In this document: piece after piece, positions 2,266 to 34,509 of the stretch
Position numbering within the stretch: position 1 is the stretch's first letter
Layout of the letters: each line of letters begins with the position of its first letter
Virus record (IMG/VR): IMGVR_UViG_2872174743_000010
Location: 1-37,129 of that record
Length of the DNA: 37,129 bases
Reading direction: 5' to 3' (one strand)
DNA from: a virus
Taxonomy: Duplodnaviria; Heunggongvirae; Uroviricota; Caudoviricetes
The notes under the pieces: model-generated
What the model was told of the DNA's origin: nothing
Database searches by the model: none
The model's input: the letters and a program-made list of their open reading frames with translations, nothing else
Program-made: the position numbers and the translations under genes

Positions 2266-2420
2266 AAGTGAATTTTGTGATGCGGTGAATGCGGCTAAGC
2301 GCACGCGGCACAGTTAAAAGTCATGTTAGTCCTTATTGGTTTGGGTGGGAAAGCCGACTGTAATTGTTAACTGGTTAACGTCACCTGGAGGCACTAGGCA
2401 CCGCATCACAAAATTCACTT
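2266..2420. repeat. Perfect 22-bp inverted repeat pair (2266-2287 and 2399-2420) enclosing 111 bp
   Basis: AAGTGAATTTTGTGATGCGGTG and its exact reverse complement CACCGCATCACAAAATTCACTT, anchored to the codons of the overlapping antisense ORFs. Confidence 0.85.
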
Positions 2421-2442
2421 CGGTGATGAAAGGAAAGAGAAA

Positions 2443-2655
2443 ATGTTGAATGTAGCTATTGAAAACCAGAACGGGTGGAATTATAATGCACCTGCACCTC
2501 ATAAAACGGGCGCCGGGATTAGCACCCCGAAAGTTACTCGAGCGCATAACCGCGCTGAAGCGGTTTTTTTTATGCGTAATGCACAGCCACATTCAAATTA
2601 TGGTGAGGCGTGCGGGGCAGCCGCAAGGCTGGCCGGGTTCTCGAGTGACCGGTAG
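2443..2655 (+). CDS. Hypothetical small protein (70 aa)
   Basis: ATG preceded by AGGAAAGAGAAA; no recognisable motif; overlaps the 5' extension of the Rha ORF. Confidence 0.25.
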   Translation: MLNVAIENQNGWNYNAPAPHKTGAGISTPKVTRAHNRAEAVFFMRNAQPHSNYGEACGAAARLAGFSSDR

Positions 2656-2737
2656 TGCTAACCCTGTGCGTCTCACCACCCATGAGATTAGCACCTCTGC
2701 TGGTGAGTTAATTAACTTATCACTTGAGGATGTCATT

Positions 2738-3283
2738 ATGGCTACTACCCTTTCTCACCCTGACGTAACCATCGAAAATGGTCGCGCCGTCACTACTTCT
2801 ATTTCGATTGCTGAGTTTTTTGGCAAGCAGCATCACCATGTTGTTCAAAAAATAGAATCCCTCGAATGTTCTGAACTATTTTTAACCAGCAACTTTTCGC
2901 GGGTTAAATTCGAACACCGCGGCAATTCTTATAACGCCTACCAAATCACCAAAAACGGCTTCGTTTTCCTGGTGATGGGCTTCACGGGCAAAAAAGCCGC
3001 CACATTCAAGGAAGCCTACATTGCTGAGTTCGACCGCATGGAGGCCGAACTGCGCCAGAATAACACCCCACCTGCTGACAAGATGATTCCGGGTGATGGT
3101 CGCACTCTGGTTGTTCACTTCGACAAATTCGGCAATGTCGAATTCACCGAAACCGTTCCTGATGGCGCACTGGTCTGTACCCTGGAGACTTTCCGGTTTT
3201 ATCTGGAAAAACAGGGCTGGACTCTTGTAAACCGGGGCGCAATTAAAAACATGACCGTAGAGCAGTTGCTTTCCTTAAAATAA
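2738..3283 (+). CDS. Rha-family phage regulatory protein
   Basis: From the Met at 2738 (GAGGA upstream): MATTLSHPDVTIENGRAVTTSISIAEFFGKQHHHVVQKIESL...NAYQITKNGFVFLVMGFTGKKAA, the conserved Rha N-terminal domain. Confidence 0.8.
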   Translation: MATTLSHPDVTIENGRAVTTSISIAEFFGKQHHHVVQKIESLECSELFLTSNFSRVKFEHRGNSYNAYQITKNGFVFLVMGFTGKKAATFKEAYIAEFDRMEAELRQNNTPPADKMIPGDGRTLVVHFDKFGNVEFTETVPDGALVCTLETFRFYLEKQGWTLVNRGAIKNMTVEQLLSLK

Positions 3284-3406: not shown

Positions 3407-3680
3407 ATGAGCAGAAAAAACCAACGTTACTCTAAAGAGTTCAAAGCCGAAGCTGTCAGAACGGTTCTTGAAAATCAACTTTCGATCAGTGAAGGCGCTT
3501 CCCGATTATCCCTTCCTGAAGGCACTTTAGGACAATGGGTTACCGCCGCCAGAAAAGGGCTCGGTACTCCTGGTTCCCGCACGGTGGCTGAACTGGAATC
3601 TGAAATTCTGCAACTGCGTAAGGCGTTAAATGAAGCTCGCCTTGAGCGATATATATTAAAAAAAGCAACAGCGTATTTTG
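3407..3680 (+). pseudogene. IS600 OrfA, truncated at the IS66-family insertion point
   Basis: MSRKNQRYSKEFKAEAVRTVLENQLSISEGASRLSLPEGTLGQWV...ILKKATAYF; contains the A-rich slippery run TTAAAAAAAG; reading continues into the IS66 inverted repeat (GTAAGCG at 3681). Confidence 0.8.
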
Positions 3681-3766
3681 GTAAGCGTAAACTGACCGCC
3701 GTATGTAGCCATTAAGCCTGTATTGGTAACGTAGGTGCCCACCTTTTCAACTAGTGGACACCTGTT

Positions 3767-4186
3767 ATGGAACAGAAAGCATTATCTGCAGAACCCCGCA
3801 GATCATTTTCAAATGAGTTTAAACTTCAAATGGTTAAACTGGCTTCACAACCAGGAGCCTCTGTTGCCCGTATTGTCCGGGAACACGATATCAATGATAA
3901 CCTGCTGTTCAAATGGCTCAGGCTCTGGCAGAACGAAGGGCGCATATCGCGGCGTCTTCCGGTAACAACCTCTTCTGACACTGGCGTTGAATTATTACCT
4001 GTGGAGATAACGCCGGATGAGCCGAAAGAACCGGTGGCTGCTCTTACTCCGTCTTTATCTACTCAGACTACAGTTAGTGCCAGCTCCTGCAAGGTGGAGT
4101 TCCGTCACGGTAACATGACGCTGGAAAATCCTTCACCAGAGCTGCTCACAGTGTTGATCCGTGAACTGACCGGGTGGGGACGATAA
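3767..4186 (+). CDS. tnpA: IS66-family accessory protein TnpA
   Basis: 139 aa with ...FSNEFKLQMVKLASQPGASVARIVREHDINDNLLFKWLR..., the IS66 orf1 pattern; stop overlaps the next gene. Confidence 0.85.
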   Translation: MEQKALSAEPRRSFSNEFKLQMVKLASQPGASVARIVREHDINDNLLFKWLRLWQNEGRISRRLPVTTSSDTGVELLPVEITPDEPKEPVAALTPSLSTQTTVSASSCKVEFRHGNMTLENPSPELLTVLIRELTGWGR

Positions 4187-4533
4187 TCTCACTCCCGTCA
4201 GGCACCCGCATCTGGCTCGTTGCTGGGATAACCGATATGCGTAAGTCTTTCAACGGGCTGGGTGAACAGGTACAGCATGTGCTGAATGATAATCCCTTCT
4301 CCGGTCACCTGTTCATCTTCCGTGGCCGACGGGGTGACATGATTAAAATCCTGTGGGCTGATGCTGATGGTCTGTGCCTGTTCACCAGACGCCTGGAGGA
4401 AGGCCAGTTTATCTGGCCTGCTGTGCGTGACGGCAAGGTATCCATTACCCGCTCGCAACTGGCAATGCTCCTCGATAAGCTGGACTGGCGTCAGCCAAAA
4501 ACATCCCGCCTTAACGCACTGACAATGTTGTAA
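4174..4533 (+). CDS. tnpB: IS66-family TnpB (orf2)
   Basis: GTG start overlapping the tnpA end; ...GTRIWLVAGITDMRKSFNGLGEQV...GHLFIFRGRRGDMIKILWADADGLCLFTRRLEEGQFIWP. Confidence 0.85.
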   Translation: MGTIISLPSGTRIWLVAGITDMRKSFNGLGEQVQHVLNDNPFSGHLFIFRGRRGDMIKILWADADGLCLFTRRLEEGQFIWPAVRDGKVSITRSQLAMLLDKLDWRQPKTSRLNALTML

Positions 4534-4563: not shown

Positions 4564-6156
4564 ATGAATCAAAAATACCTCATTCGCATTGCAGAACTGG
4601 AATGCCAGCTCCGTCAGAAAGACCAGCAACTGAGTCTGGTTGAAGAGACGGAGGCCTTCCTGCGCTCTGCACTGGCCCGCGCCGAAGAAAAGATCGAAGA
4701 AGATGAACGGGAAATAGAACATCTGCGGGCTCAGATAGAAAAACTGCGCCGGATGCTGTTCGGTACCCGTTCTGAAAAACTGCGTCGTGAAGTTGAACAG
4801 GCTGAGGCCCTGCTGAAACAACGCGAACAGGACAGTGATCGTTACAGTGGGCGGGAAGACGATCCGCAGGTTCCCCGCCAGTTGCGACAGTCTCGTCATC
4901 GTCGCCCGTTACCGGAGCATCTGCCCCGCGAAATAAATCGCCTGGAGCCAGAAGAAAGCTGTTGCCCGGAGTGTGGCGGTGAGCTGGATTATCTGGGGGA
5001 AGTCAGCGCAGAACAACTGGAACTGGTGAGCAGCGCTCTGAAAGTGATCCGCACAGAACGGGTAAAAAAAGCCTGTACAAAATGTGACTGCATCGTTGAA
5101 GCACCGGCACCATCCCGTCCGATAGAGCGTGGTATCGCGGGCCCGGGGTTACTTGCCCGCGTGTTAACGGGAAAATACTGCGAACACCTGCCACTGTATC
5201 GTCAGAGTGAAATTTTTGCCCGTCAGGGTGTCGAACTGAGCCGTGCATTACTCTCCAACTGGGTTGACGCGTGCTGCCAGTTAATGACGCCGCTGAATGA
5301 TGCTCTGTACCGTTATGTGATGAACAGCCGCAAAGTTCACACTGATGACACACCAGTAAAAGTGCTGGCACCGGGCAGGAAGAAGGCGAAAACAGGATAT
5401 ATCTGGACGTATGTCCGGGATGACAGGAATGCCGGTTCGCCAGAGCCTCCGGCGGTCTGGTTCGCCTACTCACCGGACCATCAGGGTAAACATCCGGAGC
5501 AGCACCTTAGTCCCTTCCGGGGTATCCTGCAGGCAGATGCGTTTAATGGTTACGATCGGCTGTTCAGTGCCGAACGAGAAGGCGGCGCGTTGACGGAAGC
5601 AGGATGCTGGGCTCATGCGCGGCGCAAAGTCCACGATGTATATATCAGTACCAAAAGCGCGACAGCGGAAGAAGCCCTGAAACTAATCGGTGAGCTGTAC
5701 GCCATCGAGCACGAAATACGCGGGTTGCCGGTGTCTGAACGCCTGGCGGTCAGGCAAATGCAGAGTAAACCGCTACTGACTTCCCTGTATAAGCTGATGC
5801 AGGAGAAAGAACAGACGTTATCGAAAAAATGCCGTCTGAGAGATGCGTTCCGGTATATCAGGAAGCACTGGGTTGCGTTGTGCAACTTCAGTGATGATGG
5901 TCTGGCTGAGGCGGATAATAATGCCGCGGAAAGAGCGCTTCGTGCAGTCTGTCTCGGAAAGAAAAACTTTATGTTCTTCGGCAGCGATCACGGTGGAGAG
6001 CGTGGTGCGCTACTGTACGGGCTGATCGGCACCTGCCGACTGAACGGTATCGATCCGGAAGCGTATCTGCGCTATATCCTGAGCGTACTGCCGGAATGGC
6101 CTTCCAACCGTGTTGACGAACTCCTGCCATGGAACGTAGCACTCACCAATAAATAA
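4564..6156 (+). CDS. tnpC: IS66-family transposase TnpC
   Basis: 530 aa; coiled-coil N-terminus, CCPECGG zinc motif, DDTPVKVL, WAHARRK, ADNNAAERALR and [15 protein letters not shown] motifs, all characteristic of IS66 transposases. Confidence 0.9.
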   Translation: MNQKYLIRIAELECQLRQKDQQLSLVEETEAFLRSALARAEEKIEEDEREIEHLRAQIEKLRRMLFGTRSEKLRREVEQAEALLKQREQDSDRYSGREDDPQVPRQLRQSRHRRPLPEHLPREINRLEPEESCCPECGGELDYLGEVSAEQLELVSSALKVIRTERVKKACTKCDCIVEAPAPSRPIERGIAGPGLLARVLTGKYCEHLPLYRQSEIFARQGVELSRALLSNWVDACCQLMTPLNDALYRYVMNSRKVHTDDTPVKVLAPGRKKAKTGYIWTYVRDDRNAGSPEPPAVWFAYSPDHQGKHPEQHLSPFRGILQADAFNGYDRLFSAEREGGALTEAGCWAHARRKVHDVYISTKSATAEEALKLIGELYAIEHEIRGLPVSERLAVRQMQSKPLLTSLYKLMQEKEQTLSKKCRLRDAFRYIRKHWVALCNFSDDGLAEADNNAAERALRAVCLGKKNFMFFGSDHGGERGALLYGLIGTCRLNGIDPEAYLRYILSVLPEWPSNRVDELLPWNVALTNK

Positions 6157-7779: not shown

Positions 7780-8598
7780 ATGTGTCAGGTATTTGGTGTA
7801 TCCAGGAGCGGTTATTACAACTGGGTACAGCATGAACCCTCAGACAGAAAACAAAGTGATGAGCGGCTAAAACTGGAGATTAAGGTGGCACATATCCGCA
7901 CTCGCGAAACATATGGAACCCGGCGGCTCCAGACGGAGCTGGCAGAGAATGGCATCATCGTTGGTCGTGACCGACTGGCACGTCTTCGTAAGGAGCTAAG
8001 GCTACGCTGTAAGCAGAAACGCAAGTTCAGAGCGACTACGAACCCGAACCACAATCTGCCAGTTGCGCCAAATCTGCTGAACCAGACGTTCGCTCCTACA
8101 GCACCAAATCAGGTCTGGGTGGCGGACCTGACGTATGTTGCCACACAGGAGGGATGGTTGTACCTCGCTGGCATCAAAGATGTTTATACGTGCGAAATTG
8201 TCGGCTACGCCATGGGAGAGCGCATGACAAAAGAGCTGACAGGTAAAGCCCTGTTTATGGCGCTCAGGAGCCAGCGCCCACCTGCCGGGTTAATCCACCA
8301 CTCTGATCGAGGTTCACAGTACTGCGCATACGATTACCGGGTCATACAGGAGCAGTCTGGTCTGAAAACATCAATGTCGCGTAAAGGTAACTGTTACGAC
8401 AACGCTCCGATGGAAAGCTTCTGGGGAACGCTGAAAAATGAGAGCCTGAGCCACTATCGTTTTAATAACCGGGATGAAGCCATCTCAGTAATACGGGAAT
8501 ACATTGAGATTTTCTACAATCGTCAGCGTCGTCACTCTCGTCTGGGGAATATCTCCCCGGCAGCCTTCAGGGAAAAATATCATCAGATGGCTGCTTAA
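7780..8598 (+). CDS. IS600 OrfB (DDE catalytic part)
   Basis: MCQVFGVSRSGYYNWV...VWVADLTYV...HHSDRGSQYCA...NCYDNAPMESFWGTLKNE..., the IS3-family integrase core; the orfB frame is open upstream from about 7648, as expected for an OrfAB fusion. Confidence 0.85.
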   Translation: MCQVFGVSRSGYYNWVQHEPSDRKQSDERLKLEIKVAHIRTRETYGTRRLQTELAENGIIVGRDRLARLRKELRLRCKQKRKFRATTNPNHNLPVAPNLLNQTFAPTAPNQVWVADLTYVATQEGWLYLAGIKDVYTCEIVGYAMGERMTKELTGKALFMALRSQRPPAGLIHHSDRGSQYCAYDYRVIQEQSGLKTSMSRKGNCYDNAPMESFWGTLKNESLSHYRFNNRDEAISVIREYIEIFYNRQRRHSRLGNISPAAFREKYHQMAA

Positions 8599-8977
8599 AA
8601 AAAGAACAAATGGTAGTGTCCGCTATTGCCAGTACACCTCAGGCAGACCATCAGTCATACCGGGATTAAAAAATGGCTGTGGAGAATCAGAAAAATTCTC
8701 CAGCAAAAAGGTGACCCGGATTTAATACAATGTGATTACCATCTCTGCAATAAACAGTTTTTACCTGAAAAAGCTTTTACTGGCGAGCTTATTTATATGC
8801 ATGGAAACATGATTGCCAGAAAGAAACGAAAATATTGCGGTGCAGCTTGTGCCGAAAAAGACAAGATGGCACACGAACTTTAATTAACTGAATATTCGAA
8901 ACTGAATTTATGCCAGCAATGGGGTAATGCTGCCAACTTACTGATTTAGTGTATGATGGTGATTTTAAGGTGCTTGC

Positions 8978-34350: not shown

Positions 34351-34397
34351 CAACAAAAAACCCATCAACCTTGAACCGAAATGGCGGGGTTGATGGG
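34351..34397 (-). terminator. Intrinsic terminator candidate on the minus strand (downstream of ybjL)
   Basis: CCCATCAACC ... GGTTGATGGG stem with a 17-nt loop; on the minus strand it is followed by TTTTTTGTTG. Confidence 0.45.
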
Positions 34398-34509
34398 CTC
34401 CACAAAATGGGGACATCAAAGAAAAGCAGTGGCACTAATTAAGACTGATGCCCTGCGGAAAAGTTCTGCGGTTGTGCAAAAAAATTTCATTTTCAGGGCA
34501 ACTTCAGTT

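Follow-up and report, generated by a model that had tools for sequence, protein, structure and literature searches.

The 37,129-nt stretch of DNA analyzed here (IMG/VR record IMGVR_UViG_2872174743_000010, positions 1–37,129, from a virus of the class Caudoviricetes), referred to in the following as the window, contains a perfect 22-bp inverted repeat directly after the terminator of a DicF-like small RNA (sRNA) in a prophage early operon. We found that this repeat is the helix, P1, that closes a structured RNA domain of about 155 nt on the + strand. The 111 nt between the arms, which had been overlooked in an earlier reading made without database searches (the sequence-only reading), form a pseudoknotted RNA that is itself conserved and belongs to the STnc100 class. 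P1 of this STnc100-like RNA probably acts in the early operon as an RNase III processing stem, predicted to separate the DicF-like RNA, the core and the downstream message. This explains the repeat, and the enclosed RNA is the more interesting part.

The arms, AAGTGAATTTTGTGATGCGGTG at 2266–2287 and CACCGCATCACAAAATTCACTT at 2399–2420, are complementary at 22 of 22 positions (100%) and lie 111 nt apart, exactly as had been claimed. Pairing stops at both ends, where position 2265 is A and position 2421 is C. A search of the 37-kb window with the 22-mer, allowing ≤3 mismatches, gave two matches, both of them the arms themselves, and 100 dinucleotide-preserving shuffles gave no match to the 22-mer repeat, in line with the earlier view that it is unlikely to have arisen by chance. 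The repeat starts one base after a T-run (2260–2264) that follows a terminator-like hairpin (2227–2254); sRNA, intrinsic terminator and T-run together span 2209–2264 on the + strand, directly 5' of the element. The match of 2209–2259 to the Rfam DicF model is sub-threshold (28.6 bits against a gathering score of 48; E = 4.6e-4). Downstream, a Shine–Dalgarno (SD)-like sequence, AAGGAAAGAG, and the ATG at 2443 of a small open reading frame (ORF) occupy 2429–2445 (+), the ATG being 22 nt past the stem, and a Rha-type ORF follows farther on. The placement after the terminator and before a small ORF upstream of rha had thus been described correctly, with a DicF-like call that stays sub-threshold. 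The order of the operon is a dicA-like repressor gene, a ydfA-like ORF, a long hairpin, the DicF-like sRNA with its terminator, the element, and isrK/C4/rha. No promoter-like site was found in or just before the element, and no terminator was found within 110 nt downstream of it.

When copies from other genomes were compared, the arms were seen to change in the manner of paired RNA strands. Twenty-four distinct pairs of long arms contained 473 Watson–Crick pairs, 33 G·U pairs and 6 A·C pairs (binomial p = 1.4e-5, a value that overstates the independence of related sequences). An A·C in these arms would be a G·U if read on the other strand, so that the comparison is of 33 with only 6. The arms of the copy in Qin, an E. 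coli K-12 prophage, have three differences, all of them G·U on the strand of dicF and dicB. Other lineages have a P1 of 19–22 bp made of other sequences: CAACAGACCTTGCAATGCAGTG / CACTGCATTGCAAGGTCTGTTG, ..GCAGGCTTTAAGGTGCGGTG in Citrobacter, ACAGGCTTTGCAATACGGTG in Klebsiella and AAAACGAATTTTGTAGTGCGGTG in C. braakii. Given the compensatory changes together with the G·U bias, neither the binding of a protein nor the end of a transposon can be the cause of the conservation. The same bias, along with a conserved G·U pair in an interior helix (helix B, present as G·U in 58 of 84 sequences), places the RNA on the + strand. RNA from the minus strand was considered, as its fold z-score is lower (−7.07 vs. 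−4.49), and was rejected on the conserved G·U pairs and the orientation of the operon.

The sequence-only reading had offered three explanations for the repeat: a long RNA stem such as an RNase III site, paired operators, or a miniature inverted-repeat element. The first has held up, given the compensatory changes, the + strand G·U bias and the location of a reported K-12 DicF end, described below. A pair of operators or other protein-binding DNA sites, looping out 133 bp, we regard as very improbable. Two identical inverted 22-bp sites, and GTTAAC-type palindromes in the interior, are what such a pair might look like. Nevertheless, the two arms are the only matches in 37 kb, none being by the repressor gene or its promoters, and the GTTAAC loop covaries with another strand as a pseudoknot. 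Moreover, other lineages have exchanged both arms jointly for unrelated yet complementary sequence, which is expected of RNA pairing and not of a protein site; the conservation follows RNA pairing rules.

The insertion of a miniature inverted-repeat element after the DicF-like terminator is just as hard to credit. The perfect 22-bp terminal inverted repeats, the length of about 155 bp and the copy number (a median of 2 in E. coli genomes and at most 9, with further copies on plasmids) all fit such an element, but the flanks, ...CCCTTTTTA and CGGTGATG... (TTTTTA / CGGTGA), lack a target-site duplication, as do those of the Qin and Rac copies. The sampled long-P1 copies of E. coli type always follow the same T-run, the other contexts are phage operons, and no empty site was seen. 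The plasmid copies belong to P1-like phage-plasmids and lack the outer arms, and the arm mismatches are strand-asymmetric G·U pairs around conserved interior helices and a pseudoknot. ERIC/IRU-type repeats are likewise about 125–155 bp long with terminal inverted repeats, multicopy and transcribed. The present element differs from them in its fixed neighbour, its restriction to phage operons, the absence of a target duplication, the strand-specific G·U pairs and the internal pseudoknot. There may also be a resemblance to the ERIC end (GTGAATCCCC).

To define the interior, viral contigs were scanned for an exact pattern of the 3' motif, TCACCNGGAGGCACNNGGCAC, which gave 120 loci, from which 26 diverse representatives were drawn. 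All representatives share one plan: P1, ending in GGUG/CACC; an AAU junction; P2, a 5-bp stem that has a single bulge and is capped by a UNNGC loop; a strand termed A; a hairpin that varies; hairpin B, with a strand A' in its loop whose base pairing with A creates an H-type pseudoknot; UCA; P5 (CC.GG-AGGCA-CC.GG); and the 3' strand of P1. In an unfitted MAFFT alignment of 27 diverse copies, 97.1% of the cells in P1, P2 and P5 were paired, compared to 82.8% after shuffling and ≤48% when the strands were slid, and nine pairs had changed on both sides. A covariance model was built from this alignment with the pseudoknot left out. It found one copy in the window (2275–2411) and 86 more in 60 loci. 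In the model-fitted alignment of 84 distinct sequences, 92.7% of the cells were paired vs. 73.3% after shuffling, and 20 of the 26 pairs showed double changes. The pseudoknot complementarity was present at a fixed position in 27 of 27 representatives. Over 72 distinct combinations, with 46 different A strands, its covariation score was 6.28, whereas permutation gave a null value of 4.15 ± 0.13; of 1000 permutations, which treat related sequences as independent, none scored as high.

In the window, all on the + strand, the parts are as follows. The AAU junction, within GUGAAU, lies at 2288–2290 and corresponds to columns of alignment A1 that are invariant across the superfamily. P2 (2291–2306) is a hairpin of GCGGC and GC(A)CGC with the pentaloop UAAGC, supported by RNAalifold and pair counts; three of its five pairs have changed on both sides, and relatives alternate between CCCCC/GG.GGG and the GCGGC/GC.CGC of the window type. 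Strand A of the pseudoknot, CAGUUAA (2311–2317), pairs with 2367–2373. It is followed by a variable region (2318–2355), which forms a variable hairpin in relatives, ends in a CCG/GCGG-type junction, and differs in length and sequence among the Qin, Rac, P1-like and STnc100-type copies. Hairpin B (2356–2382) pairs 2356–2363 with 2375–2382 around a loop (2364–2374) that contains strand A' (2367–2373), and seven of its eight pairs have changed on both sides in relatives. P5 (2384–2398), CCUGG-AGGCA-CUAGG, has a loop that is invariant except in weak matches; the motif is nearly invariant, and its middle pair changes from G-C to U-A. The 5' arm of P1 (2266–2287) and its 3' arm (2399–2420), a pair that covaries in other genera, form the extended closing helix around these parts, and structure prediction retained the 22-bp stem in every predicted fold of the region.

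This plan is that of the 5' domain of STnc100. The Rfam model of STnc100 (RF02076), a gammaproteobacterial prophage sRNA, matched 2271–2412 at 30.7 bits, below its gathering score of 47, with E = 9.6e-5 for a 771-nt segment and 4.6e-3 for the whole window. The match covers model positions 21–154 and leaves the 3' tail and terminator (about 155–206) unmatched. In a search of 1990–2760 at E up to 10, the element matched no Rfam family besides STnc100, and in particular no riboswitch, ribozyme or transfer RNA (tRNA). A long-P1 relative from Pseudescherichia (L128) scored 47.8 bits, above the gathering score, and a Shigella copy scored 43.1 bits, while the combined covariance model gave 95 bits for the window copy, which was itself included in the training set. 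The 5'-domain structure (P1, P2, hairpin B and P5) is common to the window type and bona fide STnc100, with compensatory changes in both the unfitted and the model-fitted alignments. Since a long-P1 copy passes the Rfam threshold, the window type is a divergent, operon-embedded variant of STnc100 and no separate family.

The two share P1 ending in GGUG/CACC, AAU, P2 with its UNNGC loop, hairpin B and the UCACC-GGG-AGGCA-CCC-GGCACC segment, and both occur in prophages, in multiple copies, and only within Enterobacteriaceae. They differ in that the window copy has no 3' single-stranded tail, terminator or promoter of its own and has a P1 of about 22 bp rather than 7–10 bp. Its place is different as well, behind a DicF-like sRNA in an early operon rather than in the late region by Q, stx, lysis genes or tRNA arrays. 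The pseudoknot appears to be outside the Rfam consensus line as displayed. STnc100 and PasD, the latter reported as an STnc100 relative, have been placed near Q, stx and lysis genes, and 11 annotated, expressed copies of STnc100 have been reported in enterohaemorrhagic E. coli EDL933, one of them seen on a Northern blot.

Over the family as a whole, the length of P1 is tied to whether a terminator is present. Among 112 distinct elements, the terminator was absent in 38 of 38 with a P1 of ≥16 bp and present in 58 of 70 with a P1 of ≤10 bp. The short-P1 copies are ordinary STnc100 genes, with a P1 of 7–10 bp, the core, a tail of about 25–40 nt and a terminator; some free-standing copies have, as read by eye, −35/−10-like hexamers that end just before P1. 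These copies are often in tandem and on the same strand as tRNA genes, with four by tRNA-Lys and tRNA-Met on one contig and five or six on another, and one comes after the Met-Arg-Arg tRNAs that characterize Stx phages. The long-P1 copies (about 20–22 bp) have neither tail nor terminator and are followed within about 15–45 nt by an SD and an ORF, namely dicB, kilR, the MLNVAIENQ.../isrK-C4-rha module, small hydrophobic peptides or a LuxR-type protein. P7 has a copy whose P1 is 9 bp long; it lies in the Op(ban) operon, which is under C1 control, with tRNA genes on one side and terB on the other.

Several loci of the short-P1 type were noted in passing. Arrays of 3–6 STnc100 copies, about 250–480 bp apart and often <1 kb from same-strand phage tRNA genes, were seen at L012 (2265–3380) and L091 (4349–5513 and 8357–8555), and in L022, L024 and L041; isrI lies inside one of them (L091, 5220–5316). 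In P7 (L165, record positions 70972–75040), the order is tRNA-Asn, tRNA-Thr, the element, terB, two small ORFs, tRNA-Ile and ban. A P1-like plasmid from Salmonella (L003) has the element between tRNA-Ser and a small hydrophobic ORF, with a second, weak copy at 2656–2779 (31.6 bits). The co-location of the family with tRNA genes is real, despite the element itself not being tRNA-like: ARAGORN detected the neighbouring tRNAs and not the element, which agrees with the lack of a tRNA match in Rfam. In Shigella flexneri (L161, 5335–5620), a short-P1, STnc100-like core runs directly into a tail and terminator that match the Rac DicF-like RNA almost exactly. DicF-like sRNAs may thus correspond to the "tail" half of genes of STnc100 type. 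A further core of this kind, degenerate and 5' of the DicF-like RNA, had been suggested in the window by GCCCGGAGG...CCGGGCAC at about 2078–2110 and by this Shigella locus, but none was found with the covariance model, even with filters off.

The element is widespread. Of 5426 complete E. coli genomes, 4577 (84%) gave a Megablast match to the 155-bp sequence, at a median of two and up to nine places per genome. It also occurs in lambdoid phages and, without the outer 15 bp of each arm, in ~90-kb non-mobilizable plasmids that are P1-like phage-plasmids; phages D6 and P7 carry it as well. In K-12, the Rac copy lies between sieB and kilR, upstream of kilR, and the Qin copy fills the spacer from the dicF terminator to the dicB start codon. 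Lack of conservation in related prophages, together with the absence of a transcript across the repeat, had been named in the sequence-only reading as grounds for giving its proposal up; the element was found in these two prophages and in lambdoid phages. A pattern scan of one genome per species found the sequence type in Escherichia, Shigella, Citrobacter, Klebsiella, Raoultella, Enterobacter and Pseudescherichia; some matches to unrelated metagenome-assembled genomes may be contamination, and others without the 3' motif resemble chance matches. A DicF-like sRNA adjoins almost all long-P1 copies of E. coli type, and in the copies sampled among the 10,260 E. coli places, the same terminator T-run is always upstream. 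Some dicB genes (L072, L114, in degraded prophages) have only the 3' half of the element upstream, fused to unrelated DNA. These truncated elements 5' of dicB show that deletion or recombination end points fall inside the element.

The RNase III reading is supported by the K-12 homologue, in which a reported RNase III-dependent end of DicF falls within the 5' arm. According to two later papers that cite Faubladier et al. (1990), DicF has two 3' ends, a 53-nt form at the intrinsic terminator and an RNase III-dependent 72-nt form. Counted from the annotated 5' end of DicF in K-12, nucleotide 72 falls at position 13 of the 22 nt that make up the 5' arm, with the break between ...AAGUGAAUUUUGU and GAUGUGGUG. 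RNase III accommodates about 22 bp and leaves 2-nt 3' overhangs, and in vivo the pairs between the staggered cuts usually include G-C. E. coli RNase III needs about 20–22 bp (two helical turns) of uninterrupted double-stranded RNA, and the stem in the window has 22 of 22 Watson–Crick pairs. The pairs between the predicted cuts, at 2278/2279 in the 5' arm and 2409/2410 in the 3' arm, would be G2277-C2409 and U2278-A2408, with a 2-nt 3' overhang; the cut position is inferred and uncertain by a few nucleotides.

The K-12 dicF–dicB spacer contains the same element at the same relative position, with a 5' arm one base off that of the window and the reported RNase III-dependent 3' end inside this arm. 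It differs in its cargo, which is dicB and not the isrK-C4-rha module, and neither its variable region nor its 5' half of helix B is the same. Transcripts spanning dicF and dicB exist in K-12. In the literature that we searched, no paper was found on a structured RNA in the dicF–dicB spacer or the kilR leader, the spacer being described as a processing event only, and the main texts of two genome-wide studies (Altuvia 2018; Gordon 2017) do not mention the site. A better-known RNase III cut, which yields the 190-nt DicF precursor, is in a different hairpin, 5' of dicF. Its counterpart in the window, as judged from the predicted fold and the position, is a long, imperfect hairpin of about 84 nt at 2108–2191 (+; −32.6 kcal/mol, z = −2.75). 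With this helix on one side and the stem of 2266–2420 on the other, the DicF-like RNA is bracketed by two long helices. Pairing of 2157–2183 with 2297–2323 (70% complementary) was considered as a DicF-bracketing stem and was rejected, as folding pairs the upstream segment locally, into the 5' RNase III-type hairpin. The Shigella prophage of L161 has an unrelated inverted repeat of about 20 bp, ACAAAACAGAGAAGA...TCTTCTCTGTTTTGT, directly after the DicF-like terminator and before the next ORF, which suggests that selection acts on the presence of a long stem here.

Stems of this kind, cut by RNase III in polycistronic transcripts, occur in the early mRNA of T7, as a hairpin in the lambda N leader and as the stalks of 16S and 23S ribosomal RNA (rRNA). 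In the lambda N leader, a cut just 5' of the SD alters translation of a regulator in the early-left operon. The likeness lies in a helix of about 20 bp that flanks a functional RNA or stands between cistrons, and in a staggered double cut that separates the products. The present helix differs in enclosing a pseudoknotted RNA of about 130 nt from an sRNA family, and not an rRNA or a simple loop.

By analogy, events in the window could run as follows. The element would be transcribed on the + strand within the repressor-controlled early operon, and on read-through past the DicF-like terminator, P1 would fold. RNase III would then cut both arms about 13 bp from the base, at the two predicted sites. 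The DicF-like RNA would gain an alternative 3' end, 19 nt longer. A 131-nt pseudoknotted core (2279–2409) would be released with 9 bp of P1 left, which is the length found in free-standing genes. The downstream RNA would start with AAAAUUCACUU... and a 5'-monophosphate, 33 nt before the ATG, and its fate would be uncoupled from that of the upstream RNA.

A number of points weigh against this account. The window copy falls below the STnc100 gathering score. The sequences counted above are related to one another, and the permutation and binomial figures therefore overstate their independence. Helix B in the window has two adjacent mismatches, U2359×C2379 and G2360×A2378, because it combines a 5' half of Rac type (CUGUAA) with a 3' half of Qin type (UUAACG), apparently as a recombinant, a chimera common to the closest E. 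coli relatives; despite the perfect P1, the core of this lineage may thus be impaired. The copies in P1-like phages and plasmids are embedded in operons with a P1 of only 9 bp, showing that a long P1 is not obligatory there. The sizes of 53 and 72 nt come from mapping done in 1990, as relayed by the two secondary sources, and a U-tail on the terminated form of DicF would move the K-12 cut by 0–5 nt further in, still within the arm. RNase III dependence is taken from K-12, and cleavage in this prophage is supported by homology. Finally, an RNase III site alone does not account for an interior pseudoknot and for junctions and loops that are nearly invariant across genera; judging from this conservation, the core probably binds something.

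A purely cis-acting leader is a serious rival, although we consider it rather unlikely that the domain, whether cut by RNase III or not, serves only to control the downstream, often toxic gene. Such a leader could protect the 5' end, exclude Rho from the untranslated gap of about 175 nt, control ribosome access as in the lambda N leader, or act as a riboswitch-like sensor. It would explain why the long-P1 copies are always 5' of an SD and ORF, at about 15–45 nt, and without a terminator, and why the cargo consists of dicB, kilR, the antirepressor module, terB and small hydrophobic peptides. The near-invariant junction and loops suggest a specific binding partner, and expression of kilR is reported to depend on NusG-assisted upstream termination. 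However, the SD is outside the stem, no riboswitch family was matched at E up to 10, and the same core occurs in free-standing, terminator-bearing sRNA genes and tRNA-side arrays, which have no cis target. In addition, the RNase III-dependent end reported in the later papers falls within the homologous K-12 stem.

It is less probable still that the element is a relic, that is, an STnc100-type gene that was captured where modules of lambdoid early operons meet and that would hitch-hike there or serve only as a recombination linker, with its stem and core now functionless. Similarity between prophages does stop at the 3' arm, with different cargo beyond, truncated 3' halves are found 5' of dicB in some degraded prophages, and helix B of the window is the Rac/Qin chimera with two mismatches. 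These features are set against the retention of the long P1, P2, B, P5 and the pseudoknot by compensatory changes in Escherichia, Citrobacter, Klebsiella, Raoultella and Enterobacter, against the G·U bias, which shows selection at the RNA level, and against the presence of the element in 84% of complete E. coli genomes. An antiterminator like HK022 put, which is about 70 nt long, has two stem-loops and lies upstream of the terminators that it suppresses, was also considered. By comparison with this description of put, the element was rejected as such a site: it has a closing helix and a pseudoknot, is about 155 nt long and lies 3' of the terminator.

DicF, DicB and KilR are among the best-studied prophage inhibitors of cell division, and their expression in K-12 depends on RNase III, RNase E, Rho and NusG. 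The RNase III cut reported 3' of DicF is now located in a defined 22-bp helix closing a conserved pseudoknotted RNA, and what had been early-operon "spacers" are linked to a multicopy sRNA family of the late region, STnc100/PasD. The comparison also yields a testable rule: a short P1 and a terminator go with stand-alone members, a long P1 without a terminator with embedded ones. Provided that the excised core is stable, K-12 would carry two unannotated members of the class, and an extra RNA layer would be added to the regulation of toxic prophage genes (dicB, kilR and antirepressors). More tentatively, one might propose that the spacer following DicF, including the K-12 dicF–dicB spacer and the kilR leader, is a gene for an STnc100-class RNA of about 130 nt that RNase III excises by way of a stalk of about 22 bp, as it does rRNAs. 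The near-invariant GUGAAU, UNNGC and UCACC-GGG-AGGCA-CCC-GGCAC would bind a conserved host factor, and these RNAs, together with the free-standing copies by tRNA genes, would constitute a widespread class of enterobacterial phage RNA, probably acting in trans. A complementarity noted by eye lies between the seed of K-12 Qin DicF, GGUGACGUU (L004, 8433–8441), and AACGUCACC (8595–8603), which comprises the 3' strand of helix B and the invariant UCACC. The DicF-like RNA of the window itself has no GGUGACGUU-type complementarity to the element.

Directly after the element, the window contains an antirepressor module (2459–3283) that is P1 immI-like or Gifsy-1-like. It begins with a strong σ70-like promoter, TTGAAA-17-TATAAT (11 of 12 positions; 2459–2487), followed by isrK (2494–2570, 63.8 bits) with a terminator and by the C4 antisense RNA (2596–2683, 78.6 bits). 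The order element, isrK, C4 is also found in Citrobacter braakii (L162). The small ORF of 70 amino acids (2443–2655) overlaps both isrK and C4, and the conserved part of the Rha-type ORF begins near an ATG at 2739. In a near-identical E. coli prophage (L164, 6178–7020), RefSeq has a 280-amino-acid "Rha family" protein that starts from the same ATG as the small ORF and spans both RNA genes. Either the frame has changed in the window or the RefSeq annotation is over-extended, and the internal ATG at 2739 may be the true start of Rha.

Farther out, ORFs resembling IS3-family OrfA are present at 1–339 (−) and 3407–3715, and a trio of IS66-type ORFs follows just after rha, at 3767–4186, 4174–4533 and 4564–6156 (+); these families were read from the translations. 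From these ORFs, the early-left arm of the prophage appears to have been truncated by insertion sequences. A sub-threshold match to AfaR lies at 3667–3759 (−; 43 bits, gathering score 100). At the other end of the window, the RybB sRNA gene at 34352–34430 (−; 105 bits) identifies the right part as core chromosome.

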